DNA of 64,000 nt from Candidatus Colwellbacteria bacterium (GCA_016176525.1 JACOWZ010000003.1:537925-601924), one strand, 5' to 3'; positions 39,984 through 62,952 are shown, counted from the stretch's first letter. A program made the numbers and translations. The notes: generated by a model from the letters alone, not told the origin.

Positions 39984-40011
39984 CAGGTGTTATGATCAAT
40001 CATAACACCTG
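39984..40011. repeat. Palindromic repeat family P24, copy 1 (CAGGTGTTATGATCAATCATAACACCTG). Intergenic between cysS and rplU.
   Basis: Seen directly in the sequence. One central mismatch relative to the other three copies. Confidence 0.75.
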
Positions 40012-47839: not shown

Positions 47840-48607
47840 ATGAAAGTTGATTATCATTTTCACCCGAATCTTCCGAAGAGCGACAAACGCGCGCGGCGTA
47901 AAGTTGCTAAAATATATTCTAAACTCCAAGATGCGGGTATTCGTTGCGTTATTATAACCGAACACGTTTACAAAAACTACCGGCGCGCGTGGCAGATGAT
48001 GTTGGAGCAAAAACCTGCAAACATTTCTATATTCCCCGGGCTAGAATATGTAACAAAAGAAAATATTGATATATGCATATTTGCAGAAACCGAAAAGATA
48101 TATCAACACGAATTTGTGCCATTTAAGTGGACTTATGAAGAAGTGCTCGCATACCTTAAGCAAAATACAGATATATTCGGTTATGTAACACACCCCCTTA
48201 CCTTAGGACAAACAAGTATTGTAGATAAAAAAGGAGCGGACTTTGCAAAACTTGCTATAAGCCAACTTGGAGCAGTTGAGGCGTCTTACACAGCTCTATC
48301 CAAGCTAAAAAATATTATAATTAGTAAGAAAACCTTAAATAGAATAAAAGACAACGAAAACCTACCGCAGGAATTCTATCCCAAGAATATAAAATTCCTA
48401 ACCACCGGAAGTGATGCGCATCATCCGTGGGATATAGGAATGTGCACAGAGGTTGAAGAAAAAAGCAGCGTGTTTGATTCAATAATAAGCAATAAAAGCA
48501 TGAAAGTAGTAGGCAAAAGAGATGCAACCGTAATACAAACTATAAGAAGTATATTAACGGTTATACACGAATGGTGGTTAAAAATCTGGTATAGGTTATG
48601 GAAATAG
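47840..48607 (+). CDS. PHP-domain (polymerase/histidinol-phosphatase-like) metal-dependent phosphoesterase
   Basis: MKVDYHFHPN (HxH). ...ITEHVY... ...TGSDAHHPWDIG, a PHP motif order with the terminal DAH. Confidence 0.55.
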   Translation: MKVDYHFHPNLPKSDKRARRKVAKIYSKLQDAGIRCVIITEHVYKNYRRAWQMMLEQKPANISIFPGLEYVTKENIDICIFAETEKIYQHEFVPFKWTYEEVLAYLKQNTDIFGYVTHPLTLGQTSIVDKKGADFAKLAISQLGAVEASYTALSKLKNIIISKKTLNRIKDNENLPQEFYPKNIKFLTTGSDAHHPWDIGMCTEVEEKSSVFDSIISNKSMKVVGKRDATVIQTIRSILTVIHEWWLKIWYRLWK

Positions 48608-49131
48608 TAATACAAGTAATTTGGCTTTTATTGCCGGCGGCTGTCGCAAATATTTGCCCCGTAATTTTCCGCTTTTTGCCTATATTAAATTACCCGGTTG
48701 ATTTTGGTAAAACCTTTAACGGTAAGCCAATCTTAGGGCGCCACAAAACTTACAGGGGTTTCCTAGTAGGGATCTTGGGCGGAATATTAACAGCACAAGC
48801 GCAAAAAGCTCTTTACCCAATAATGGAAGCTTATTCAATAGTAGATTACTCGCAGATAAATATATTTATATTCGGTTTTGCGCTTTCTGCCTCTGCTCTT
48901 CTGGGAGATACCGCAAAGAGTTTTTTAAAAAGAAGGTTGAACATCGCACCGGGCAAACCATGGATTCCATTTGACCAAATTGACTGGATTGTAGGGTCAC
49001 TTATCGCGGCGAGTTTTTGGGTTACATTAAACCTCTCCATAATAGTGGTAGGCATTTTTGTGCTAGGCACGTTGCACTTTATACTCAACTTGATTGGGTA
49101 TGCAACCGGCCTAAGAGAAGAAAATCTATAA
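48598..49131 (+). CDS. CarS-like (DUF46, CDP-archaeol synthase family) integral membrane cytidylyltransferase
   Basis: 177 aa with 5 TM helices. LLPAAVANICPVI and FGKTFNGKPILGRHKTYRGF resemble the CarS PAYxANxxPV and GxxKTxxG cytoplasmic-loop motifs. This is from memory of the family, not from a database search. Confidence 0.5.
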   Translation: MEIVIQVIWLLLPAAVANICPVIFRFLPILNYPVDFGKTFNGKPILGRHKTYRGFLVGILGGILTAQAQKALYPIMEAYSIVDYSQINIFIFGFALSASALLGDTAKSFLKRRLNIAPGKPWIPFDQIDWIVGSLIAASFWVTLNLSIIVVGIFVLGTLHFILNLIGYATGLREENL

Positions 49132-51206: not shown

Positions 51207-54200
51207 TTAGAAGTCAATTGTGATATTTGATACCCTAAGCTGATAATCGCCATTCTGGAAATCAAACCGTATTGTATTGCTCACAGTTGAAAATACGTTA
51301 AATGTGCGGGTGGCATAAGTTCCGGTGTTACTCTCGGTGCACGTGCCGGCGCCTGTGTATGGAGTTGTAAAAGAGAACGTGTCCACCAAAGAGCCGTCAA
51401 AATAAGTTCTGATGTATGCTGTAGACCCATTACTATTGGCGTAATAACAATATTTGTAAGAAATTGCTACCGGGGAAGAGGTATCGCTAACACCATGGAA
51501 GGTTGCTAGTGTACCTGTGGTGCCATTAGCGCCTGTGGAATTAAGTTTACGGGCGTGGCGGCTAATTCCAGATTCATTTTCAAACTCCAAAGATGACGCC
51601 CAGTCATTGATGCCAAAGCTTGGAAAATCAGGATAAGTTCCATCTTCAAAAACATGCACAGAACCGCCATAATCTATATCTTGATACAAAGCCACTCTAT
51701 ATGTTGTACCTACCTTTGCCGATGAAGCGAAATCACCCCAGCCATAACTGTGCAAATTTGAGATAGCTGAACAGCAACTAAATCCTGTGGTGCTGCCTCC
51801 ATACCACGAATCTTGATACAGCGCTATAGGATAGTTATATACTACTGTTGCTGTGCGGCTGGAGTTTACGGTAAGTTTACACCTAACCCAATCAAGAGTT
51901 GTGCTCGTAGGAGTTCCGCTGTAACTCCACACCTGGTCATCACAGCCTGTAAAATCTTCTATAATCTTACCACTCAGTTCTCCTGTAGATGTAAGTTCAA
52001 TGTAGGTGCCGCCACTTATGCTTGGTTTTGAATAGTTTGTAGTGCCTCCATATGTCGATGGGCTGCCGGTAATAGAGACGCCAGATAATCCACTTGAGTT
52101 AACATTAAGTGTATATGACGCATAGGATCCCTGCGCATAGTAGTAGCCTTGATAGTAGCCTTGGTAATAGCCTTGATAGTAGCCTTGGCCGTAGTAATAT
52201 CCTTGATAATAGCCTTGATAGTATCCTTGACCGTAGTAATATCCTTGGCCGTAGTAATAACTTTGGTAATATCCTTGATAATATCCTTGGCCGTAGTAGT
52301 AGCCTTCTGAGTAGTAAGCTCCTTGGCTGTAGTAGTATCCTTCTGCGTAAGGTGTGACGCTAAAAGCAAACTCCGCTGGTGTTGTATCTTCATTTAACAC
52401 CGCGTCTCTGGCTTTAACCTCAAATGTATGGCTTCCGACTGACTGAGTCGGTAAAGTAACCGAAGTTGGAGTTGACCACGATGACCAACTACTACTGCCG
52501 CCCGTGAATGAATATTGCTTCCCTGATCCGCCGTTATATAGCTCTGAGATCTCTGCAGCAGATAAAGTACGGTTCCAAATTGCAAGTTCGTCAATTTTAC
52601 CGTCGGAGTCTCCGTAAAACGGAGCGTTCGTGCAGGTAGATTGATACATAAACCTATAAAGACCAATGTTAATCGGACAGCCGGATGTAAAAATTGGAGT
52701 TGTAGTAGGTGGGCTAAATGTAGCGCTTAACGCACCATTAATATAAGTCTTAAATGTGGTTCCAGACTTAGTGGTAGCGATATGATACCACTGGCCTGCA
52801 GAAAGCGCGCCGGTATCCCCCAGACTTGTCCACGATTCTTGTACTAGTGTTCTTACATTGCCGCTAGAGCTCAATACATAACTTCTGAAAGCCGTTGATT
52901 CACTTGATGTGGGTATATCAATAATTGTGAAGGACTCTCCTCCAACCCAACCATCTATAAATATCCAAGCGGCATAACTAAAGTCGCCTGATGGGAAGGT
53001 AGGGCTGCTCACTCGCGCATAATCATCGGCGCCATCAAAGCTTAACGCAGAGCCTATTTTGCCCGTTGCCCATGTAGTGTTATTAAATAAAGATCCATTG
53101 CTCGTGCCATGGCTATCAGAAAATGATGTGCCAGAGCCCTCATCAAATTTCCAGTAAGATATAAGACTATCTGTTAAAGTGGAAGATCCTCCCCCACCTC
53201 CTCCACCGCCCGGTACAAATTCAACATCCGCCTGGCCGTACATATAGTTTGTAACAGTATTCGTAGGCATACTATTACTTTGATACAAATACCCAGAATT
53301 TTTTATATTCACGCTACCGGAAGTTACAGGGGTGGTAAATGTTGTATAGCAGTAACCCCCGTCCCTTACAGCCACAAAATAATCAGTGTTTGCTGTAATA
53401 GAAACCGGAGTTATGTTTGTATAGACCCAATTAGTTGTACCTGTTGTGTTTACTGTTGCGCTCGCAAGTAATGCGCTGTCGCTTACTCTATAAAGTCTAA
53501 CGGTTCTTGTGGCTGAAGCACATCTAGACCCTAATTTAGTTATCTGGCCGTCAATAGACGCAGAAAATTTATAGCCCATATTATAGTCGCCAGTAGTTGA
53601 ACTTGGTGTTGCTATGCCGGTTGCCTGAAGCGGTGTTTCTGGTGTTCCGGAGTCTTGGCTAACCTGCCAGCTAAATGTGCATGGCGAGTTTGCGCCACCG
53701 CAATCAGACCCAGACCCACCATAACCGAATGTGGGAGTGGAATCTGATGTGCTGGCTCCGGGATTGCTTGTAATTACTGTGTTAGGCGCTGTGGTATCAA
53801 TAGTAAAGCTATATGAGGCTGGTGTAAGGTCTTCGTTTGGTACGTTCGTTACTGCATCCCTCGCTTTTACATAAAATGTATGCCCGCCATCAAGTAGGGC
53901 ACCTGTAGTCACCGATGCGGTAGTTGACCATGCGGAGTATGTGCCACTGTCAATTTTCCAGCTATATTGGCATGGGGTATGCGCATCTGTACAGCTATAT
54001 GCAAAGCTGGGTGTAGTGTCGGTTGAAACTGTGAGCGGGTTTGAAGTAATAGATGTTGCCGGACCCGTTGCATCAACCGTAAAGCTAAAGCTAGCCGGCG
54101 TTGTATCTTCTGTGCCAGCGCTATCTCGCGCTTTTACATAAAATGTGTGTGCACCATCAGATAAGGCTCCAGTAGTTGCTGAAAGCAAGGCTGACCATGC

Positions 54201-54740
54201 GGAATATACTCCGCCGTCAACTTGCCAAGCGAATTCACAGGTAGTTGTGTCGCAACCATATCCAAAAGTTGGGGTTGAATCATTAATTAATGTGCCAGGA
54301 GTAGAAAGAATCGCCGTAATCGGTATGCTATTTATCGTATTTAAAGTGTACCTCCTAAACCAACCGACACCCGGGCTTGTGTCTGATGCAACCTGCACAT
54401 CATTGTCCGGCCTGCCGTTGCCATCTGCATCTTGCATCCAAAGGTATGTTTTACGCAGTTGCGCATCTCCAATAAGCACTATTGAACCCTGAATATTAAT
54501 TGAATAGCCCGAGTTCCAAACGATTGTTTGCCCTGTGTTAACAGTAAGAGTAGTTCCCGAACTGACAGTTAAGTTGCCTTGCTCAATACCATCGGTGCCG
54601 CTGGGGAACTGACACGATGAAGACACAGTGGTGTTGCCCGAGGCATCCCTGGAACAATCAGCAGCAAAGGCGGGCTCGCCGTTTAAAAGCACAAAGAAAA
54701 ATGCGATAAAAGCTAATATGCTGATAGTTTTTTTAATCAT
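51207..54740 (-). CDS. Giant secreted surface protein (1177 aa) with Ig-like repeats, a poly-Gly linker, a LamG/concanavalin-like domain and a Y/G/Q-rich tandem repeat
   Basis: Signal peptide MIKKTISILAFIAFFFVLLNGEPAFA. Three repeats of about 85 aa (TPTFGYGCDTT...GAHTFYVKARDSAGTEDTTPASFSFTVD). GGGGGGGG. LamG-like ...DELAIWNRTLSAAEISELYNGG. (GYYQ/GYYYGQ)n block. Confidence 0.6.
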   Translation of the reverse strand: MIKKTISILAFIAFFFVLLNGEPAFAADCSRDASGNTTVSSSCQFPSGTDGIEQGNLTVSSGTTLTVNTGQTIVWNSGYSINIQGSIVLIGDAQLRKTYLWMQDADGNGRPDNDVQVASDTSPGVGWFRRYTLNTINSIPITAILSTPGTLINDSTPTFGYGCDTTTCEFAWQVDGGVYSAWSALLSATTGALSDGAHTFYVKARDSAGTEDTTPASFSFTVDATGPATSITSNPLTVSTDTTPSFAYSCTDAHTPCQYSWKIDSGTYSAWSTTASVTTGALLDGGHTFYVKARDAVTNVPNEDLTPASYSFTIDTTAPNTVITSNPGASTSDSTPTFGYGGSGSDCGGANSPCTFSWQVSQDSGTPETPLQATGIATPSSTTGDYNMGYKFSASIDGQITKLGSRCASATRTVRLYRVSDSALLASATVNTTGTTNWVYTNITPVSITANTDYFVAVRDGGYCYTTFTTPVTSGSVNIKNSGYLYQSNSMPTNTVTNYMYGQADVEFVPGGGGGGGGSSTLTDSLISYWKFDEGSGTSFSDSHGTSNGSLFNNTTWATGKIGSALSFDGADDYARVSSPTFPSGDFSYAAWIFIDGWVGGESFTIIDIPTSSESTAFRSYVLSSSGNVRTLVQESWTSLGDTGALSAGQWYHIATTKSGTTFKTYINGALSATFSPPTTTPIFTSGCPINIGLYRFMYQSTCTNAPFYGDSDGKIDELAIWNRTLSAAEISELYNGGSGKQYSFTGGSSSWSSWSTPTSVTLPTQSVGSHTFEVKARDAVLNEDTTPAEFAFSVTPYAEGYYYSQGAYYSEGYYYGQGYYQGYYQSYYYGQGYYYGQGYYQGYYQGYYYGQGYYQGYYQGYYQGYYYAQGSYASYTLNVNSSGLSGVSITGSPSTYGGTTNYSKPSISGGTYIELTSTGELSGKIIEDFTGCDDQVWSYSGTPTSTTLDWVRCKLTVNSSRTATVVYNYPIALYQDSWYGGSTTGFSCCSAISNLHSYGWGDFASSAKVGTTYRVALYQDIDYGGSVHVFEDGTYPDFPSFGINDWASSLEFENESGISRHARKLNSTGANGTTGTLATFHGVSDTSSPVAISYKYCYYANSNGSTAYIRTYFDGSLVDTFSFTTPYTGAGTCTESNTGTYATRTFNVFSTVSNTIRFDFQNGDYQLRVSNITIDF
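52110..52340 (-). repeat. In-frame tandem short repeat encoding (G-Y-Y-Q / G-Y-Y-Y-G-Q)n inside the giant surface protein
   Basis: 12-15-nt units (tagtagccttga / taatatccttga...) repeated about 15 times. Protein: EGYYYGQGYYQGYYQSYYYGQGYYYGQGYYQGYYQGYYYGQGYYQGYYQGYYQGYYYAQG. Confidence 0.7.
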
Positions 54741-55201
54741 AATGTTAGCTCTATTATTGAATCGCTCGTGGCATCATATGCCGAGATAACCGCGTTGTAG
54801 CCTGTAACACTATCATAATTTGCAGCCCACTTGCCCTGCCAAAAGCCATCTCTGCTTCTGCCGTTTAAGAGCTCTAGTTGATACGGATATTCCTGTGTTT
54901 CGGTTTTTATAGTCACTGTGACCGATTTTACGGGCCTAAAATTTGTAACATGCACGCTAAACATCTGCTCCTCGCCGCGCTTAATATCAAACGGGTCAAT
55001 AAAGCCGCTTACTATTCTTGGACCCCTCTCGCCGCTAGAAACAGTAAACACCTCGCCCCTTTCCGACGGGCTCGGCACAAATTTATCACTATTCACTACC
55101 TGCTCTTCGCTAAAAGGAAATAAAGTTATAAATACAAAAAATATGGCAATTGCAAGCGCAAAGAGAGCTAGATAATCTTGTTGACTGCCTTTTTTAGCCA
55201 T
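54737..55201 (-). CDS. Small secreted/membrane-anchored hypothetical protein of 154 aa
   Basis: N-terminal hydrophobic helix. It overlaps the giant protein start by 4 bp. Confidence 0.35.
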   Translation of the reverse strand: MAKKGSQQDYLALFALAIAIFFVFITLFPFSEEQVVNSDKFVPSPSERGEVFTVSSGERGPRIVSGFIDPFDIKRGEEQMFSVHVTNFRPVKSVTVTIKTETQEYPYQLELLNGRSRDGFWQGKWAANYDSVTGYNAVISAYDATSDSIIELTL

Positions 55202-55719
55202 TAATTAATTATAACATTATAAAGCACAGCGATGCTGTGGAGAATTGGCAAGGCAGATGCATCCCCAGACGGCTCTACAATTATGCGCCAGAGCATTGCC
55301 CTGCCTTTAGTATTTGGAAAAACAACTCTTTCTCCAACTTTCACACTATGCCAAGTTGCGCCGTCGTTAGAAAGTTCCAGAGTAATATCGCTATCGCCAC
55401 CGGTAAAATCCAGATTATCTATTGAGGCAGATCGCACCTCGCCACCGTAGGTGTTGAGGTTTGCAGAGACAAGCTGGCCGGGCGAGATAAAGGCCATTGC
55501 CTCGGGGTCATGCCGCATAGTTGTTTCTGCCATATTAATCCATGTCGCGCTAGAAAATATATCTGTAAAGCTTGCGTCGCGTGCGTCCTCCGGCGCCTCG
55601 CTCGTTTTACCATCCGTATAAATCCACGCTAGAAGTATGGCGCTTGCTAAAAGCAAAACAACAAGCGCGCCAAACGCTATTCGTTTACTATTAGTTTGCC
55701 CGTTACTTCGTTCCTGCAT
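55201..55719 (-). CDS. Small membrane-anchored hypothetical protein of 172 aa
   Basis: N-terminal TM helix ALVVLLLASAILLAWIY. It is contiguous with its neighbours. Confidence 0.35.
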   Translation of the reverse strand: MQERSNGQTNSKRIAFGALVVLLLASAILLAWIYTDGKTSEAPEDARDASFTDIFSSATWINMAETTMRHDPEAMAFISPGQLVSANLNTYGGEVRSASIDNLDFTGGDSDITLELSNDGATWHSVKVGERVVFPNTKGRAMLWRIIVEPSGDASALPILHSIAVLYNVIIN

Positions 55720-56243
55720 GAATTTTGGCAGTAAAATTCGTATTCGCCATGGCCAGAAACCTGGAATTGTATAGTTTCTGTTGTGCCCTCAATTATTTCT
55801 TTATAAACTCCCAGGTCCGAGAAAAAGATATCGTAGTTGCCGTCAACCGCTGTAAAATTAATCTTTACAATATCACCGGTGTTTACAACGATTGTACTCG
55901 GCACATATTTTTGATTCTCCCCGCTTATATCAAACTCGCGGCGCTCAACTGTGCCGACTTGTGTAACTTTTGTTGGTACAGCAACATCTTGATTGGCTGA
56001 ACTCCCCACTTCGGGGGTAGCTACTGTCTCTGTTATTTCTTTTCTTGTACCGCCCTCTACGGTTTCTAATGCATCTGGGTCGTTTGGTCTGAATCTGTCT
56101 TCACCCAAAACTACCACGCCTTCATCGGTTAACAATTGCGGTTCTTGTGTAGGCGCAGGTTTAAGTTGTAAAAATAAAATAATAATAACAGCAACTGCGG
56201 CAACCAGTGCCATACCCCATATTAACTGTGCCTTAACACTCAT
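55677..56243 (-). CDS. Small secreted hypothetical protein of 188 aa, possibly with an Ig-like beta domain
   Basis: N-terminal TM/signal segment, a Pro/Thr/Glu-rich linker, then a beta-rich C-terminal domain. I recognise no catalytic motif. Confidence 0.35.
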   Translation of the reverse strand: MSVKAQLIWGMALVAAVAVIIILFLQLKPAPTQEPQLLTDEGVVVLGEDRFRPNDPDALETVEGGTRKEITETVATPEVGSSANQDVAVPTKVTQVGTVERREFDISGENQKYVPSTIVVNTGDIVKINFTAVDGNYDIFFSDLGVYKEIIEGTTETIQFQVSGHGEYEFYCQNSCRNEVTGKLIVNE

Positions 56244-56259
56244 AGTTTTATTATATCAC

Positions 56260-59200
56260 TTATAATTTTTCGTTTATGTTAATCGCGCCTTCTTTTATGT
56301 GCTCTCCAACTTCATCATCTGTTATTGCTCTATCCGCTACCAACCTGTAGCTTACCTCTCCTTCGCCGCTGCCGTGGATTGTAAGGGTATTTGCGATTGT
56401 GTCTTTGGTGTACCAAACGCGGCCATCAAACCCCGGGGTTAAAAACACCTGCAGACCCTCCATATCCGCACCAAAGTTTGTTATTTGGTAGAAAACCCAA
56501 AGATTACTGCCTCGCTTAAGGTTATCAAAATCAATAATATATTCATTCCCGGCTAGGTGCGCAGTGTCTACCACTTCTTCTTTTGTGGAACCCGCCATAA
56601 ATGGCGCATAGGTTGCGTAGTCTTCGCCGCCAATGTTGTACACCGGGTCGATCGTGGCAACTGTAATTTTGTTTACGCCAAGAATGTTGTTGTTATTCAT
56701 GTTTAAGTTGCCGTCAAAACGCCCTTCGCCTGCAACATGAAGTTTTACGGCAGGACTCGCCGTTCCGATGCCAACATTCCCGCTGCCTGGCATTAGCCGA
56801 ATATGATCACCCACTCCCCCGGCAGAATATAAAGAAAGATGGTTACCATTTTCCGCTTTTATACAAAATTCGTCTGTAACGTTTGTACAACTAGTCCATG
56901 CCCCGTCATACAACATAATACCCTGGCGTGTTGCTCCAGAATAAAACCCTAGCCACTCGTAAGTGGTGTCGTCTGCTCGCGCGCTATGGAATCCGATTTT
57001 ATCGTTTGTGCTGTTGATATCGGTGCCGATAGTCAGATTACCGGAGAATGTTCCCGATCCTCCATTCACTATATTTCTTGATGAATCTATAAATTGTGTG
57101 GTGCCGACTTTAAGGTCTCTCACCCTAAGGGTCTCGTATCCGGTTCCTGGGTTGTCTATAACCGCGAGATCCCCGCTGTTGTCGCCATCCACATAACCGA
57201 ACTGGGACGCAACCGCGCCGGAGTAGTGGAAAGATATTCTTGGGGCGTCGCCCGCGCCGGCGTTCCAATCCTGTATAACCTCTAGGGGCGCTTGGTTGTA
57301 AGCTAGTCCTGCGGAGCCCTGCAACAGACGCATCCTTCCGCTAACATCTAATTTGGACCCTGGACTCGTAGTCCCTATGCCGACGTTACCACTGGTGTTG
57401 GCAAAAAGTACGTTAGTGCGGTAGGCAAAGTTGCCTCCGCTTGCAACACTCAAGGTAGCTCCACCCGATCCCACCTCTAATGTGCCGTCAGTGCGCATTA
57501 TTCCAGCATTGTGGTAGATATTCTTAGAGCCATAACTTCGAATCCATGTAGTGTCTGACATATACCATCCACCACCATATGTTTCAAACAATAGCGGGTT
57601 ACTGCCTATAAGGCGTAGATTACCGCTTCCACGAATGTCTCCTATAACATCAAGGGGGTAACTTGGGCTCACCGTGCCTACACCTACACGCTGATTAGTT
57701 GCGTCAACGTATAAAACCGGTGAAGTACTCGCCGCCGCGTCAAAACGATAGCTGCCTTTTGTAGTGGTAGAACCAAACGTGCCCGGCGTAATTTGCCCAG
57801 CCGCAATTGCACTTGTGGTTTCTACATTGCCCGTAATGGTGCCGGATACATCCAAATCGCCGGTGATGTTTGTGTTACCGTTTACGTTTAGTTTGTATAC
57901 ACCGGGCGTTGTGGTGGCAATACCGACACTGCCGAATGTCGGAACAAGAAGAACGTTATTAGCTACACTAATCATATCTACATTAGCACCAGTAGCGCTA
58001 GCCGAAGTTCTAAGAACTATAGCATCATTTGTGTTATCTCTTACTTGTATGACTAATCTAGAGTCCTCTGTATTCAGATTATGCTCTCCATAGATTAATC
58101 CGTCGTCTGTAGACCCAATACCCGCTGTGCCGCTGTTTGTTCCCGCGTTGAATTGAATGGCATTTATTGGAATATTAACGTTTCCAATAACCTCAAGTTT
58201 TGTTGTTGGCGAGGCCGTCCCTATTCCAACGTTGCCAGATCTTTGAATCAGAAATCTAGGTGTCGTTAAATTATTATCATCAAATACTTGAAAGGCATTT
58301 GTACTATCATTGACTATAATATTCACAGTTGCATTTCCAGCTGCTCCGTTACCAACTTTAAGTTTGGGTTGAGCATCATCACTTATTCCTCTATCTGCAA
58401 CTTCTAAATTAGCACCTGGGCTAGCCGTACCTATGCCGATATTGCCGCTTCCATCTATTCTCATTCTTTCCGATGGAGCGTCGTTTGTTGAACCTGCGTT
58501 GAATATAATATCTCCCCCTGATTGATTAGCGTTGATATTCAATTCTCCACTCTGAACACCGAAACCGTAAACGGTGGTACCAGATTCATAAAGTCGAATA
58601 TGTGCAGTGGGATTTGTACCCCCAGTATCATAGAACGTTCCAAAGGACAATTTAGATCCCGGCGCCGTCGTCCCAATACCAACGTTGCCGTTCACGGAAA
58701 GCTTGGCCGTGTGGGACGTTACTCCTGCGTCATAACCAATTCCCACCTCGTTTTCGCCTTTCGCCTTAAAAGACACTATCTGGTTGCCGTCGCCATTGCC
58801 TACCCCGAAATTCTCGCCGCCAGTACTCGACTCGCCGACTAAGTAAAGTGTGTCATAGTCAGCAGTCGGCCCGGTGACGGTCCACCGGTAATCGATGGGG
58901 TTGGTTGTTCCGGTGGGCTCAATCCTTGACATACCCTTGACCGTCAACGGGTTACCCGGAGATGTCGTCCCGATGCCGACGTTGCCGCCTGCGGCTATTG
59001 TCAGCCTGTCCAATGAGTTTGTCCTAAATCTAAAATCCCTTGAACCAGAATTGTGCCCTATTGAAAGACCTGTATTGTCCATTACGAAGTCTGTTGTGTA
59101 TCCTGATGTTGACGTTGAACCATTGAATCTGAAAGCTGTATTTACACCATCTTGTATATGCAATTTCGTTCCAGGGCTCGTCGTCCCTATACCTACCCGC

Positions 59201-60639
59201 TCATTAGCTCCGTCAATAATAGCCCAGCCAGTTGTGAGCCCAGTCTTTCTAAATGTATAGTTTACAGAAGAGCTAGGATATGCAGAGCCAAAAGTGCCTC
59301 CACTAACTTGCGCTGCGACAAGTTCACTTGTGGTTTCTACATTGCCAGTAATTGTGCCAGATACGTCTAAATTACCAGTTATGTTTGTGTTGCCTGCGAC
59401 GTTCAGCTTATAAGTTCCCGGAGTAGTAATACCGATACCAACATTACCTGTTGAATCTATAGTAACTCTGTCAACTCCATTATCCTGGATATGCAAAGCA
59501 CTTATATCTGCATCAACCGATCCGATATATACATCATTAACACCATTTATCCCAAGGATTCTTGTTGATGCTCCTGCGGAATTCTTGGCTCTGTAATACT
59601 GTGCGTTTGCGTTCAGAGTTATGTCGCCGTTAACATCGAGCTTTGAACCCGGCGTGACTGTACCTATGCCGACGTTGCCGGAGTTGAGAATTGTCATGGC
59701 CGTTGTCGCATTGGTTCCCAAATAGATGTGATGGTTCTCGCGTTGCCACAGGTAGACATCCTGGTTTGAATCCACTTGGACATCAAATCCGTCACCGGAC
59801 GCAGACCCCGTGTTAGCGTTGCTTATCTTGATCTGAGAATCGGTTCCTGCACCATTCACATGCAATTGTCTTTGAGGACTTGTCGTCCCGATGCCGACGT
59901 TGCCGCTAACAACCAAACTATTTGCTGGCGCAGCAGTGCTTGCGGAATACCCTATTGCCGCGTTGCCATTGACTTGAAGTTTTGAACCTGCTGTTGCCGT
60001 GCCAATGCCAACCCCTCCGGTTCCGGATGGTTCAAGGATGATATCTCCTCCCCCCGGCTGTTCATTTTTAATATGGAAATCAAAAGTGTTAGCATTCGGA
60101 AAACCCAATTTTGCAAGGCTAGTCCAGCCCCCAACGGTTGGTGAAAAACCATACTCTATGTATGGTATGGCGGTGGCTGCGTCGGTTGCGGCACTTCGCA
60201 AGCGGAGGTGCGGGTTTATACCTTTAATCTCTAGTTTGGCTGCCGGTTCGCGAACGTTATCAACGAAATCATCGCCAATACCGACATTTGTGTTGTTATG
60301 AAAAAGGTTTGTCGTTGACACCCAAGCGGGCGCGCCCAGTGCATTCGTGCCTCCATAAATAGTTGCGCCTTGTATTACCGATGGTAACAGACCTTCAATC
60401 TCTCTCCATTCTGCTAAACCATCAGTGTTTGTGGCAGTAAGAACTGTGCCATCCGTCGGGTTGCCGCCGCTTATCTGAATACGCCTGCCGCCGGTAATTC
60501 CCACCGTAGTGTCTGAAACCGTTATAGCCGAACCTCCACCGCCAGGCGGTTGTTGAGTTGGTTGTGCAAAAACAACAGTAGCGCCAATTATGCTCACAAA
60601 GAGAAGCACAAGCGCCCGATTTAACACTCTTATAACCAT
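56260..60639 (-). CDS. Giant secreted repeat protein (1459 aa) with at least 12 repeats of a GNVGIGTTSPGxKL module. Probably a beta-helical fibre or adhesin.
   Basis: Signal-peptide-like N-terminus. Recurrent units such as SGNVGIGTTSPQRQLHVNG, GNVGIGTVTPGSKLDVNG, GNVGIGITTPGTYKLNVAGNTNITGNLDVSGTITGNVETTS (seen twice), GNIGIGTASPGANLEV and GNVGIGTASPAVKLHVAG. Confidence 0.6.
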   Translation of the reverse strand: MVIRVLNRALVLLFVSIIGATVVFAQPTQQPPGGGGSAITVSDTTVGITGGRRIQISGGNPTDGTVLTATNTDGLAEWREIEGLLPSVIQGATIYGGTNALGAPAWVSTTNLFHNNTNVGIGDDFVDNVREPAAKLEIKGINPHLRLRSAATDAATAIPYIEYGFSPTVGGWTSLAKLGFPNANTFDFHIKNEQPGGGDIILEPSGTGGVGIGTATAGSKLQVNGNAAIGYSASTAAPANSLVVSGNVGIGTTSPQRQLHVNGAGTDSQIKISNANTGSASGDGFDVQVDSNQDVYLWQRENHHIYLGTNATTAMTILNSGNVGIGTVTPGSKLDVNGDITLNANAQYYRAKNSAGASTRILGINGVNDVYIGSVDADISALHIQDNGVDRVTIDSTGNVGIGITTPGTYKLNVAGNTNITGNLDVSGTITGNVETTSELVAAQVSGGTFGSAYPSSSVNYTFRKTGLTTGWAIIDGANERVGIGTTSPGTKLHIQDGVNTAFRFNGSTSTSGYTTDFVMDNTGLSIGHNSGSRDFRFRTNSLDRLTIAAGGNVGIGTTSPGNPLTVKGMSRIEPTGTTNPIDYRWTVTGPTADYDTLYLVGESSTGGENFGVGNGDGNQIVSFKAKGENEVGIGYDAGVTSHTAKLSVNGNVGIGTTAPGSKLSFGTFYDTGGTNPTAHIRLYESGTTVYGFGVQSGELNINANQSGGDIIFNAGSTNDAPSERMRIDGSGNIGIGTASPGANLEVADRGISDDAQPKLKVGNGAAGNATVNIIVNDSTNAFQVFDDNNLTTPRFLIQRSGNVGIGTASPTTKLEVIGNVNIPINAIQFNAGTNSGTAGIGSTDDGLIYGEHNLNTEDSRLVIQVRDNTNDAIVLRTSASATGANVDMISVANNVLLVPTFGSVGIATTTPGVYKLNVNGNTNITGDLDVSGTITGNVETTSAIAAGQITPGTFGSTTTKGSYRFDAAASTSPVLYVDATNQRVGVGTVSPSYPLDVIGDIRGSGNLRLIGSNPLLFETYGGGWYMSDTTWIRSYGSKNIYHNAGIMRTDGTLEVGSGGATLSVASGGNFAYRTNVLFANTSGNVGIGTTSPGSKLDVSGRMRLLQGSAGLAYNQAPLEVIQDWNAGAGDAPRISFHYSGAVASQFGYVDGDNSGDLAVIDNPGTGYETLRVRDLKVGTTQFIDSSRNIVNGGSGTFSGNLTIGTDINSTNDKIGFHSARADDTTYEWLGFYSGATRQGIMLYDGAWTSCTNVTDEFCIKAENGNHLSLYSAGGVGDHIRLMPGSGNVGIGTASPAVKLHVAGEGRFDGNLNMNNNNILGVNKITVATIDPVYNIGGEDYATYAPFMAGSTKEEVVDTAHLAGNEYIIDFDNLKRGSNLWVFYQITNFGADMEGLQVFLTPGFDGRVWYTKDTIANTLTIHGSGEGEVSYRLVADRAITDDEVGEHIKEGAININEKL

Positions 60640-60657
60640 TCTCGTAATTATAACATC

Positions 60658-61539
60658 TTATATAGCGGCGCAGGTGTTGAAATCTTTAACACTTTGGTTA
60701 TATGTTGCAATGTCTTCTTTAACCTCTTCAAGTAGGGCATTATATTGCTCGGCAAGCGCGTTGTATTCATCTATCTTTTGGTTATACTCCGGCCCGCTCT
60801 TGGGCCTGGTTTGTTCCAAATCAACTTTCCGCTCTTCTAGCTCCGCCGCCCAAATTTCTAGTTGCGCCTCATTTGATTCAATCTCCGCGGCCAAATACTC
60901 TGCTACAGGCGGGCAATAAGAGAGAGGCAAGCCAAATTCTTGCGCGGCAAGCCAAACACTTTGGCCATTAAACTCACCTTTTTCTGCATACACGCCAATT
61001 TCCGTAAACCTCTGGTTAAGAATATTTGCTCTGTGGCCTGGGCTATTCATCCAACCATCTACAACCATTTCGTCCCCCGCCCAGTTGCCCAGCGCCAAGT
61101 TTTCGCCTATCAAAATAAATTGATAGTTTGCGCCCGCTGCCAGATCCGCAGGACCCGTGCCATTGGGCGAAACGTGTTCAAAATATTCAAGCGCGAACAT
61201 ATCTTTAACCTTAGCGATGGCGGCATTTTTAAGTTTTAAGTTTTCAGAGAGGGGCGGTAAACCCTGTTCCGCACGATGTTTGTTTGTCCAACTTATTATG
61301 CCCGCGCTTGTAAGCTCTTTGCCGGGCAGAGATGTGCGTGATTTTAAGGGGCCGGGTGTGAGCACACGGTCTGCGCTGGGCAAAACCTCAACGCGAGAAA
61401 CAATGTCACTCAAAATTTCGTCTACTGCAGGCAGCCTTGACCATAAGCTCGCGATATCAGAACGGAACACCGTTAACACACCTACTGTAACTACCAATGC
61501 AAGAAATACTAAAATTATTTTTATTATGTGATTAAACAT
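60658..61539 (-). CDS. CAP (SCP/PR-1-like) domain protein with an N-terminal TM helix and a C-terminal coiled coil
   Basis: GWMNSPGHRANILNQRFTEIGV is a canonical CAP motif (HYTQVVW / GHxxN-type region). The N-terminal helix is IILVFLALVVTVGVLTVF. The C-terminus is E/L/A-rich. Confidence 0.65.
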   Translation of the reverse strand: MFNHIIKIILVFLALVVTVGVLTVFRSDIASLWSRLPAVDEILSDIVSRVEVLPSADRVLTPGPLKSRTSLPGKELTSAGIISWTNKHRAEQGLPPLSENLKLKNAAIAKVKDMFALEYFEHVSPNGTGPADLAAGANYQFILIGENLALGNWAGDEMVVDGWMNSPGHRANILNQRFTEIGVYAEKGEFNGQSVWLAAQEFGLPLSYCPPVAEYLAAEIESNEAQLEIWAAELEERKVDLEQTRPKSGPEYNQKIDEYNALAEQYNALLEEVKEDIATYNQSVKDFNTCAAI

Positions 61540-61550
61540 GGCTTATCCAC

Positions 61551-61574
61551 GGTGTTATGATTAATCATAACACC
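61551..61574. repeat. Palindromic repeat family P24, copy 2 (GGTGTTATGATTAATCATAACACC). Intergenic between the CAP-domain gene and the PduO-like gene.
   Basis: Seen directly in the sequence. Confidence 0.75.
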
Positions 61575-61581
61575 GCATTCT

Positions 61582-62169
61582 CTATTTATATTTGGGGTGT
61601 TTTTCTCTTTTATGTGACTTTTTGGCTTCCATGCGCCCGAGGGCAAAAAATAGACTGGAAAGGCGGTTTAAATATGCCATTATCGCTGAGTCTGGCAACA
61701 AGGTGTTATGATTAATCATAACGCCTTGTTTTTTACTTTTATAATTCTTATAAAAAACAAGTGCACTGCGTTCCGCGCGGCGCGAAACTGCCCTTACATA
61801 ATCCAAAAGTGCAGACGTTTCGTTTACGCCGGATATGATAAATCCGCGTTCGGGTTTTAACTTGCGCTCACATTCGTCAATAATACGCTCAATTTCCGTT
61901 ATTTTAGTTTTTGGGAACGCCGGCGACTTGTATTTGCCGCCTAGCATAATATTTGCAACATTTGCTTGGATTATAAACAAATTTTCTTGCACGGTGTGTA
62001 AAATCTTTTTTGTCACCGCAGACAGCTTGCGCGCTTTTGCAACGCCTATAAGCGAGTTTAGCTCGTCTAGGTCGCCGAGCGCCGCAATTTCCACACAAGT
62101 TTTGTCTATCTTCTTCTTACCAATAACGCTTTTTCCACTATCACCCTTGCCGGTATAAAAAAGTCCCAT
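61582..62169 (-). CDS. PduO-type ATP:cob(I)alamin adenosyltransferase family protein. It carries an in-frame copy of the palindromic repeat.
   Basis: N-terminal YTGKGDSGKS...GDLDELNSLIG (compare YTRTGDKGETSL...LDELNS). C-terminal YLNRLSSLFFALGR (compare YLNRLSDLLFVLAR). The repeat encodes GVMINHNT at 61702-61725. Confidence 0.7.
   Translation of the reverse strand: MGLFYTGKGDSGKSVIGKKKIDKTCVEIAALGDLDELNSLIGVAKARKLSAVTKKILHTVQENLFIIQANVANIMLGGKYKSPAFPKTKITEIERIIDECERKLKPERGFIISGVNETSALLDYVRAVSRRAERSALVFYKNYKSKKQGVMINHNTLLPDSAIMAYLNRLSSLFFALGRMEAKKSHKREKHPKYK
61697..61730. repeat. Palindromic repeat family P24, copy 3, with extended arms AACAAGG...CCTTGTT. It lies in frame inside the PduO-like CDS.
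   Basis: Seen directly in the sequence. It encodes KQGVMINHNTL. Confidence 0.75.
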
Positions 62170-62238: not shown

Positions 62239-62952
62239 CTAATCACTAATTGCAACGTATGTTGCAATTATTGCTGCTGTTTCGGCGCGCAAAGTTAGTT
62301 TGCCTAAACTCACAATCTTAAACCCTGCTTCTTTCGCGGCTGTGAGCTCCGATTCGTCCCAACCGCCTTCTGGGCCAACCCAGAGATTAAGTTTTAAGTT
62401 TTTAGTTTTTAGTTTTAAGTCATTTATGGGCTCGCCAGATATATCAAAAAGGGTGTTATGATTAATCATAACACCACCTGCGTTTTTTACAGCCTCATTA
62501 AAAGAGATCACTTCGTGAATCTTAGGGACAACCGCGCGGCCAGACTGCTCGGCCGCCTCTTTAGCAATGATTCGCAAGCGCTCCAGATTAAGGTTTAGTT
62601 TAACCGTGCGCTTTGCAACAATCGGAACAATTTCTTTTATGCCGACTTCTGTTGTTTTTTGCACAACTAACTCGAAATTATCTCTTTTTAAAACCGAGCA
62701 ATAAAGAGTGATATCCGCCTCCGACTCTGATTTATTTTGGGAAATTTCGAGAACTTTAAACATAATAAAACCGTTGCCAAAATCCTGAATTTCAGCTACG
62801 GCCTCGCAAGATGCGCCGTCTCCCAAAACCAGCTTATCACCTATGCGAAGGCGCAATACGTTTCGAATCTGTTTTACAACATCCTCGTCGGATACTCTTA
62901 ATAATTTTCCAGACTCGAGAGTTTCGTTAATAATAAATCTATGGAGTTTCAT
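62239..62952 (-). CDS. rsmE: 16S rRNA (uracil1498-N3)-methyltransferase RsmE. It carries both repeat families in frame just before the conserved GPEGG motif.
   Basis: MKLHRFIINE...(PUA-like N-terminus)...WVGPEGGWDESE (RsmE GPEGGF/W motif). The segment GVMINHNTLFDISGEPINDLKLKTKNLKLNL is encoded by the repeats at 62388-62475. Confidence 0.75.
   Translation of the reverse strand: MKLHRFIINETLESGKLLRVSDEDVVKQIRNVLRLRIGDKLVLGDGASCEAVAEIQDFGNGFIMFKVLEISQNKSESEADITLYCSVLKRDNFELVVQKTTEVGIKEIVPIVAKRTVKLNLNLERLRIIAKEAAEQSGRAVVPKIHEVISFNEAVKNAGGVMINHNTLFDISGEPINDLKLKTKNLKLNLWVGPEGGWDESELTAAKEAGFKIVSLGKLTLRAETAAIIATYVAISD
62388..62421. repeat. TAGTTT(T/G)TAGTT repeat family, copy D (TAAGTTTTAAGTTTTTAGTTTTTAGTTTTAAGTC). 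It lies inside rsmE, 30 bp from P24 copy 4.
   Basis: Seen directly in the sequence. It encodes DLKLKTKNLKLN. Confidence 0.6.
62452..62475. repeat. Palindromic repeat family P24, copy 4. It lies in frame inside rsmE.
   Basis: Seen directly in the sequence. It encodes GVMINHNT. Confidence 0.75.

Follow-up and report, generated by a model that had tools for sequence, protein, structure and literature searches.

A gene for a probable tail-fibre-like surface protein of Candidatus Colwellbacteria and its unannotated C-terminal domain family

The Fibre Gene and Its Repeated Motif

A 64,000-nucleotide stretch of DNA (hereafter, the window) from a metagenome-assembled genome (MAG) of Candidatus Colwellbacteria (GCA_016176525.1 JACOWZ010000003.1:537925-601924), a member of the Candidate Phyla Radiation (CPR; Patescibacteria), carries a gene for a putative surface fibre of 1459 amino acids (aa) on its minus strand, within a compact run of genes for other membrane-anchored and secreted proteins. 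The shaft of this protein is homologous to those of phage tail fibres and of solved fibres from the predatory bacterium Bdellovibrio, and it ends in a domain family without annotation that is common to CPR bacteria and DPANN archaea. The open reading frame (ORF) is intact, having an ATG start, 1459 codons, and one stop, at its end only, and the coordinates given in a preliminary description of the window proved to be exact. Its product is identical to NCBI MBI2013862.1, a 'hypothetical protein' encoded on a 645-kb contig and a singleton when clustered at 90% identity. Glycine (14%), threonine (11%), and asparagine (8.5%) are abundant in the protein, and cysteine is nearly absent.

The preliminary description had reported at least 12 modules with the motif GNVGIGTTSPGxKL, recurring at intervals of about 60-100 aa, and both statements are borne out. 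Twelve copies are found when up to five substitutions are allowed, whereas 2000 shuffles of the protein average 0.007 copies, with at most one in any shuffle; three further, degenerate copies with VGIG or VGVG cores (aa 119, 632, and 985) make 15 in all. Spacings from core to core are 91, 38, 75, 77, 82, 72, 78, 21, 81, 70, 101, 80, 101, and 203 aa, most of them thus falling between 70 and 100 aa, and the consensus across all 15 copies is i..sGNVGIGTtSPG.kL.V.G. In a six-frame scan of the window, the motif was confined to the fibre ORF. Positions of the motif copies and of all other features are collected in Table 1.

Homology of the Shaft

Searched as a whole, the fibre protein matches no family in Pfam (to E 0.1) or NCBIfam. 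Among the phage protein families of PHROG, it matches phrog_9942, 'tail fiber protein', over seven stretches (E 7.5e-42), as well as phrog_18345 (E 3.2e-23). A tblastn search of 50,697 phage genomes returned 27 records, none of which reaches 60% identity (the matches listed have 24-32%). Genes annotated as tail fibres are among them, from Synechococcus phages S-CBP1 and S-PRM1, S-TIM5-like cyanophages, Pelagibacter phages, and Thermus phage phiFa; in the S-CRES phages, the match lies within a gene annotated as 'chaperone of endosialidase'. When all sequences of the Protein Data Bank (PDB) were searched with phmmer, the matches were Bd2133 of Bdellovibrio bacteriovorus (8OND, E 2.4e-12) and two related chains. 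A profile of the shaft, built from aa 640-905 and 18 homologues, recovered five distinct chains (8OND, 1.6e-28; 8OML, 5e-17; 8OJN, 7.3e-13; 8OL4, 4.7e-8; 8ON4, 1.7e-7), exclusively Bdellovibrio fibres of a single type, and no other PDB family.

These are the 'mosaic adhesive trimeric' (MAT) fibres (Caulton et al. 2024, PMC10769870), which consist of a signal peptide, a conserved beta-rich N-terminal domain of ~130 aa, and a long, 'meandering' trimeric beta-helical shaft, followed at the C-terminus by an S74 chaperone/protease or, alternatively, by a self-folding tip domain, of which there are several unrelated types; trimerisation is invariant among them and the tips are swappable (PMC10769870). 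The capping loops of MAT fibres follow the consensus V-G-G/N-pi-x-x-P-x-x-x-L (PMC10769870), and the motif of the Colwellbacteria protein fits it. In Bd2133, the first beta-helix domain spans G683-E813 and the second N814-A907 (PMC10769870). HMMER alignments place the corresponding motif copies at Bd2133 residues 682-698, 797-812, and 869-884, where the residue number is 661 plus the 8OND chain index (as a check, T20 is T681 of the TSGNLG peptide in PMC10769870). The first two copies therefore stand at the start and end of domain 1, and the third lies inside domain 2, ~20 residues short of its end, a placement that agrees with the 70-100-aa spacing in the fibre protein.

Judged by the placement of the aligned Bd2133 copies, two of which sit at the ends of a beta-helix domain, the motif is a module-capping loop and not a solenoid rung. 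The fibre protein is accordingly best read from its sequence as a row of ~14 modules, one of them of double length (aa 1086-1289). The earlier proposal of a beta-helical fibre or adhesin resembling phage tail fibres is supported through homology to those fibres and to the solved MAT structures, and its view of the motif as a repeating solenoid unit has to be given up. The double-length module holds an inserted domain; here, aa 1101-1205 share 62% identity with part of the S74-bearing fibre P0105, aa 1056-1212 are matched by phrog_5906, and neither a PDB sequence homologue nor anything useful in Pfam at E 10 was found for the insert.

A long unit of the shaft had also been described as occurring twice nearly identically, from which recent internal duplication was suggested. 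Two copies do exist, and 34 of their 40 residues are identical, but near-identity does not extend to the DNA, which is only 76% identical over 129 nt. Moreover, 20 of the 35 codons for identical residues differ between the copies. This strong divergence at synonymous sites contradicts a recent event, and the long unit is better regarded as an old duplication or a recurring module type, apparently kept by purifying selection. The 129-nt pair and a 26-nt exact motif repeat are the only internal repeats at the DNA level, and a diversity-generating retroelement, considered as a candidate, was dropped.

The C-Terminal Tip Domain

The full-length protein has 3544 homologues, the best non-self match being 28% identical. 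Among the 120 listed of these 3544, ~40% carry PF13884 (Peptidase_S74; S74) at the C-terminus. No PF13884 match was obtained for the fibre protein, either as a whole (E 0.1) or with its C-terminal 160 aa (E 10), and the SDxxxK catalytic motif was not found anywhere in it. Instead, its last ~140 aa are common to nine of the 119 best full-length homologues and are always C-terminal there.

A word-indexed search with this tip alone returned only four proteins, and it was an exhaustive search with aa 1300-1459 against 1.84 billion cluster representatives (50% identity clusters) that exposed the family, with 1112 representatives at E<=1e-3, of which 942 reach E<=1e-10. In the 150 listed of the 1112, the proteins bearing the tip range from 132 to 3495 aa in length, and the domain stops close to the C-terminus (median distance 23 residues), more than 60 residues following it in just five. 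The family matches no Pfam model (E 10) and has no PDB sequence homologue by profile search. Its conserved core reads K.TV.TIDP.Y.I.G..YATY...M.G.KEE..G...L....Y.IDF..L..GSDLWLF.Q.T.FG.....L.V.LTP.F.G.VWY.K.......L.I.G...GEVSYR.

An AlphaFold2 (AF2) model of the tip, made with 31 homologues, is a beta-sandwich (mean pLDDT 83.6, pTM 0.74). Compared by Foldseek with predicted viral structures, the model is matched foremost by phage tail and tail-fibre-like proteins (E 2e-5 to 8e-4; query TM-score, TMq, 0.42-0.55). Since the Foldseek matches lead to phage tail and tailspike domains, the modelled tip would fall in the fold class to which the distal domains of phage receptor-binding proteins belong, while resembling none of them closely.

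Distribution in CPR Bacteria and DPANN Archaea

When one genome was scanned for each prokaryotic species, with a trimmed alignment and with patterns that favour close relatives of the window's tip, 45 tip loci were obtained. Of the 14 closest (54-62% identity), 13 bear the labels of DPANN archaea (Woesearchaeota, Pacearchaeota, and Nanoarchaeota) and one, L005, that of a Bacillota MAG. The remainder are mostly from CPR bacteria (Saccharibacteria and Kaiser-, Adler-, Nomura-, Wolfe-, and Paceibacteria), in addition to two labelled just as bacteria and weak matches in Omnitrophota and Zixibacteria. The archaeal proteins that bear the tip are giant fibres as well, built with this GNVGIGTTSPGxKL motif; for example, L004 encodes 2641 aa with 18 copies, L012 3151 aa with 20, and L013 more than 3473 aa with 25. 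Neither the INPHARED phage genomes, searched by tblastn, nor IMG/VR, searched by pattern scan, yielded the tip.

In a neighbour-joining tree, the window's tip adjoins the DPANN clade, apart from most CPR sequences. Its mean identity is 55.6% to 13 DPANN tips versus 47.4% to 26 other CPR tips, and in 986 of 1000 column resamplings the sequence closest to it comes from DPANN or is L005; the comparison uses a short alignment and the taxonomic labels of the MAG records. Archaeal provenance is supported by contigs of 236 and 351 kb, an archaeal/eukaryotic-type YGR210-like GTPase in L014, and archaeal leader peptides (see below), and by nothing further.

The N-Terminal Region

The first 25 residues of the fibre protein consist of a basic n-region, a 16-aa hydrophobic core, and a VFA/Q boundary. 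Directly thereafter, QPTQQPPGGGG (60532-60564) is a degenerate copy of a leader motif of CPR tip-domain proteins, in which a hydrophobic helix is followed by A-[WF]-[TNS]-x-P-[ST]-x-x-P-P-x-G-[GN]. The motif is present in 36 of 126 tip-domain representatives versus 1 of 113 general fibre homologues, and could serve for signalling or processing specifically in CPR; examples are L018, L038, P0141, P0162, and P0184, and the leader of the fibre protein resembles that of P0257. Further along, aa 53-138 recur, at 45% identity, as an internal piece of the tip-domain protein P0252, the one homologous sequence found for aa 1-205.

Several CPR tip-bearing fibres (L023, L025, L035, L044, L045, and L046, and also P0061) open with a helix-turn-helix (HTH) or MerR-like segment of the form KEAxxxxGxxxDYISRLCRxGKI, and NCBI calls one relative, 2452 aa long, a 'MerR family DNA-binding transcriptional regulator'. 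Such a segment would put a DNA-binding fold of cytoplasmic type at the start of a giant extracellular fibre.

Genomic Context

The fibre gene belongs to a tight run of six genes on the minus strand, separated by gaps of 18, 16, -43, -1, and -4 nt (Table 1), of which the CAP gene is probably the first. The stop of the 154-aa gene and the start of the 1177-aa gene have 4 nt in common, and a 114-nt gap separates the run from a gene for an RNA recognition motif (RRM) protein; past the latter lies the sole convincing terminator-like hairpin on the minus strand of the scanned region (50774-50745; 13 pairs, 8 of them G-C). From 51207 to 60639, the locus takes up 9433 bp, or 14.7% of the window, much as the ~15% first estimated. 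Flanking genes encode ribosomal proteins L10 and L7/L12, the RRM protein, CDP-alcohol phosphatidyltransferase, glucose-6-phosphate dehydrogenase (G6PD), 6-phosphogluconolactonase, a penicillin-binding protein (PBP) transpeptidase, RsmH, cobalamin adenosyltransferase, and RsmE, and no other phage genes were recognised among the ORFs examined in ~24 kb around the fibre gene. As these flanks are ribosomal and metabolic, the fibre gene does not appear to lie in a prophage.

Table 1. Features of the fibre locus, with window coordinates
Feature	Position	Strand	Remark
Fibre gene, 1459 aa	56260..60639	(-)	
Predicted Sec signal peptide or N-terminal membrane anchor, aa 1-25	60565..60639	(-)	inspection
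N-terminal region without family, aa 26-205	60025..60564	(-)	
Degenerate capping motif TNVGIGDDFVDNVR, aa 117-130	60250..60291	(-)	
Fibre shaft, aa 206-1318	56686..60024	(-)	homologous to triple-beta-helix modules of MAT and phage tail fibres
Capping motif GGVGIGTATAGSKL	59977..60018	(-)	six-frame scan
Capping motif GNVGIGTTSPQRQL	59863..59904	(-)	six-frame scan
Capping motif GNVGIGTVTPGSKL	59638..59679	(-)	six-frame scan
Capping motif GNVGIGITTPGTYK	59407..59448	(-)	six-frame scan
Long unit copy 1, aa 399-438	59326..59445	(-)	
Capping motif ERVGIGTTSPGTKL	59161..59202	(-)	six-frame scan
Capping motif GNVGIGTTSPGNPL	58945..58986	(-)	six-frame scan
Degenerate capping motif NEVGIGYDAGVTSH, aa 630-643	58711..58752	(-)	
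Capping motif GNVGIGTTAPGSKL	58648..58689	(-)	six-frame scan
Capping motif GNIGIGTASPGANL	58405..58446	(-)	aligned to Bd2133 GLVGINTAAPLQKL, C-terminal end of its first beta-helix domain
Capping motif GNVGIGTASPTTKL	58195..58236	(-)	aligned to Bd2133 GNVGIGATAPTAKL
Capping motif GSVGIATTTPGVYK	57892..57933	(-)	six-frame scan
Long unit copy 2, aa 904-943	57811..57930	(-)	
Degenerate capping motif QRVGVGTVSPSYPL, aa 983-996	57652..57693	(-)	
Capping motif GNVGIGTTSPGSKL, exact consensus	57349..57390	(-)	six-frame scan
Double-length module with inserted domain, aa 1100-1286	56782..57342	(-)	
Last capping motif GNVGIGTASPAVKL, shortly before tip	56740..56781	(-)	six-frame scan
C-terminal beta-sandwich tip domain, aa 1319-1437	56329..56685	(-)	unannotated family, CPR bacteria and DPANN archaea
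293-aa membrane-anchored CAP/SCP-domain protein	60658..61539	(-)	18 nt upstream of fibre gene
188-aa membrane-anchored cupredoxin-like protein	55677..56243	(-)	16 nt downstream of fibre gene
172-aa membrane-anchored protein	55201..55719	(-)	homologous domains in L001 and L019
154-aa membrane-anchored protein, uncharacterised domain	54737..55201	(-)	
1177-aa secreted protein	51207..54740	(-)	Big_13, Laminin_G_3, weak beta/gamma-crystallin match

Part of this arrangement recurs elsewhere. In a Patescibacteria genome with a related fibre, P0040, whose tip belongs to the same family, the fibre gene is flanked by genes for cupredoxin-like proteins similar to the 188-aa protein, and homologues of the 172-aa protein, the 154-aa protein, and the N-terminal part of the 1177-aa protein are encoded downstream. 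By iterative search of the ORFs at the 40 loci with at least 1.5 kb beyond the tip gene, domains of the 154-aa type and of the 1177-aa N-terminal type (~150 aa) were found downstream of tip genes in 13. All matches are on the same strand and downstream, save for one extra minus-strand match in L018, and in six loci (L005, L010, L016, L018, L031, and L038) the partner domains are no more than 100 bp away. Most DPANN loci, together with Saccharibacteria L031 and L038, have the two domains fused in one ORF. The fused ORFs of L005 (941-2872), L010 (1360-3102), and L016 (1151-3355) lie directly downstream of fibre genes, have Cys-rich ends, and start with a leader (such as KRGLSAIVATLIIILL) which we take to be an archaeal class III pilin-type signal peptide; given this archaeal-type leader, the Bacillota label of L005 may reflect misbinning. 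Neither partner domain belongs to a Pfam family, and the CAP gene was not conserved at the related tip loci searched. The suggestion that neighbouring proteins are partners of the fibre therefore gains, for two of them, from the synteny of the 154-aa and 1177-aa N-terminal domains; none of the neighbours, however, is recognisable as export or anchoring machinery.

Several other observations were made around these genes. At L001 7482-16317, the P0040 gene is surrounded by genes for three small membrane proteins of cupredoxin-like type (171, 189, and 183 aa), in which no obvious copper ligands were noticed. The 1177-aa protein contains, between its Laminin_G_3 and crystallin-like domains, a run of eight glycines (53187-53210) and a stretch of 76 residues (aa 798-873; 52122-52349) composed almost wholly of tyrosine (36), glycine (18), and glutamine (13) in (G)YYQGYYYGQG repeats. 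A 22-bp palindrome, GTGTTATGATTAATCATAACAC, occurs four times in the window (39987-40008, 61552-61573, 61703-61724, and 62453-62474) where shuffles expect none, three copies being exact to the pattern and one having a single mismatch. Two copies are translated in frame as GVMINHNTL, within a cobalamin adenosyltransferase-like gene (61582-62169, minus strand) and an RsmE-like gene (62239-62952, minus strand), and the palindrome looks like a small palindromic repeat element tolerated in coding sequence. Finally, a plus-strand ORF at 48598-49131 on this bacterial contig matches the CarS-like CDP-archaeol synthase family (PF01864, E 3e-36) and overlaps the end of a CDP-alcohol phosphatidyltransferase gene on the opposite strand.

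Comparison with Known Systems

The closest known counterparts are the Bdellovibrio MAT fibres of the non-S74 subgroup, represented by Bd2133 (8OND), whose shaft is of the same sequence family. Both have a repeated capping-loop motif at the module ends, an N-terminal signal peptide (judged by eye in the fibre protein), and a swappable, independently folding, non-S74 C-terminal beta-sandwich, and both are encoded on the chromosome of a bacterium that lives, presumably so in the CPR case, on other cells. The fibre protein differs in that its producer belongs to the CPR, a group not among the MAT-bearing organisms in Table S3 of PMC10769870, in the different, unannotated family of its tip, in its length (1459 versus about 1000 aa), and in the conserved partner genes beside it. 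Phage tail fibres and tailspikes of the S74 type (PF13884; e.g., T5 pb1, 4UW8, and K1F endosialidase, 3GW6) likewise have homologous shaft modules, share with the fibre protein the expected intertwined trimer and a distal C-terminal domain, and have S74 in common with many of its close relatives; the fibre protein itself, in contrast, lacks S74 and SDxxxK, has a predicted signal peptide, and is encoded in a non-phage context.

More distant comparisons can be drawn for the tip and for the overall architecture. The tip has no sequence similarity to the receptor-binding domain of the cyanophage Pam1 tailspike (7EEA) or to the C-terminal domains of capsule depolymerases from Klebsiella phages; TM-scores are only moderate, and the likeness may extend no further than a shared beta-sandwich topology. 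Trimeric autotransporter adhesins (type Vc, YadA-like) are also long, modular, trimeric bacterial surface adhesin fibres, and the relative P0105 has a weak YadA_stalk match. Unlike them, the fibre protein has no C-terminal outer-membrane beta-barrel anchor, matches none of the YadA head and stalk families in Pfam, and would have the opposite polarity, with the N-terminus as the proximal end.

A Probable Surface Fibre and Its Alternatives

It seems fairly probable that the gene encodes a Sec-exported, homotrimeric surface fibre of the tail-fibre or MAT kind, anchored or retained by its N-terminus, with the beta-sandwich head distal and contacting another cell. We infer export, trimerisation, orientation, fibre length, and host adhesion alike, trimerisation specifically from homology. 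The protein would be exported by Sec, its N-terminal signal or anchor then remaining at the membrane or being cleaved nearby; three chains would wind together into a row of ~14 triple-beta-helix modules, each GNVGIGTTSPGxKL copy forming a capping loop at a module end; and a self-folding beta-sandwich of ~120 aa in place of S74 would probably be the head of the trimer, most likely binding a ligand on the host cell of the presumably episymbiotic CPR bacterium. Scaled from 142-150 Å per 370 residues of Bd2133 and from mature Bd3182, which measures ~550 Å up to its self-cleavage site at S782 (PMC10769870), the fibre might, very roughly, reach 55-100 nm. The attachment role is suggested by analogy with phage and Bdellovibrio fibres and by the obligate episymbiosis of all cultivated Patescibacteria, as stated in PMC12206443.

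Several points weigh against this proposal. The resemblance of the N-terminus (MVIRVLNRALVLLFVSIIGATVVFA, followed by QPT) to a Sec signal peptide was judged by eye only, and aa 1-205 belong to no family in Pfam at E 10. The first PDB match of the tip by Foldseek, 7EEA, is weak and only moderate in similarity (E 6e-3, TMq 0.34). With 40-67% identity across CPR and DPANN, the tip is also unusually conserved for a receptor-binding domain, and this conservation fits a role in folding, trimerisation, or docking as well as it does ligand binding. In addition, a monomer AF2 model of the shaft (aa 640-905) is of low confidence (pLDDT 53, pTM 0.24). A poor monomer model is expected of an obligate intertwined trimer, yet proves nothing. 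Structure prediction had been proposed as the means of confirming a beta-helix, with a globular fold as the refuting outcome, and the monomer model of the shaft delivered neither.

The constant position of the tip, at the extreme C-terminus of proteins of 132-3495 aa and far better conserved than their other parts, could also speak for the reverse orientation, in which the beta-sandwich would be a cell-proximal anchor or sorting domain for many cargoes on the CPR/DPANN envelope, comparable in logic to the C-terminal domains of the type IX secretion system (T9SS) or to S-layer anchors, and the N-terminal part would be distal; the conserved neighbour genes could then supply the tip's docking partner. 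This arrangement is unlikely, given that the N-terminal signal or anchor helices, and the HTH-like segments with which some CPR relatives begin, suggest that the N-terminus is the end at the membrane, that the C-terminus is distal in the homologous MAT and phage fibres, and that the fold of the tip is matched by distal tailspike and fibre domains. Also quite unlikely is a structural protein of the cell coat, whether envelope, sheath, or matrix, with no specific ligand. A large, secreted, repetitive protein rich in G, T, N, and S, encoded among other large surface proteins and with no ligand-binding site identified, would suit such a role, but its homology, as far as detectable, lies entirely with fibres by which phages and predators recognise receptors, and the mosaic swapping of tips among its relatives is typical of recognition proteins.

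It is highly improbable that the gene derives from a phage and acts on a particle, as a prophage remnant or as the fibre of a tailocin or gene-transfer agent. The PHROG tail-fibre family and the matches to phage tail-fibre genes are what such an origin would predict; however, the surroundings are ribosomal and metabolic with no other phage gene among the ORFs examined, the predicted N-terminal signal peptide is a feature that virion fibres lack, the tip was missing from the INPHARED and IMG/VR scans, and many CPR and DPANN genomes have relatives on the chromosome. There is just as slim a chance that the protein is a single-chain beta-solenoid (a right-handed beta-helix of pectate-lyase-like or ice-binding-like type) and not an intertwined trimer, as the generic solenoid idea of the preliminary description and the G/N/T-rich composition would have it: no beta-helix or pectate-lyase family of Pfam is matched even at E 0.1, a period of 70-100 aa is far above that of a solenoid rung (about 18-25 aa), the only solved homologues are intertwined trimers, and the AF2 monomer run gave no confident solenoid.

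It is tempting to go one step further and to suggest that the fibre, its tip, and the conserved downstream partner domains form a host-attachment module exchanged between CPR and DPANN episymbionts, although this must be put forward as a tentative and rather doubtful proposition. The closeness of the window's tip to DPANN tips and the fusion of the DPANN partner domains behind a pilin-type leader bear on it. A literature search found no paper describing such fibres in CPR or DPANN, which is not proof of their absence from the literature.

Significance

How the ultra-small cells of CPR bacteria and DPANN archaea recognise and hold their hosts is largely unknown, and mainly type IV pili have been implicated so far (PMC12206443). 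The gene described here indicates that a CPR genome encodes a fibre of the type with which phages and Bdellovibrio recognise cells. Fibres of this architecture are already a known class; less ordinary are the unannotated tip family and the partner genes common to CPR and DPANN. Together, the tip family and its partner genes constitute concrete, clonable candidates for determinants of host range, and they also offer a testable case of surface machinery common to bacteria and archaea.

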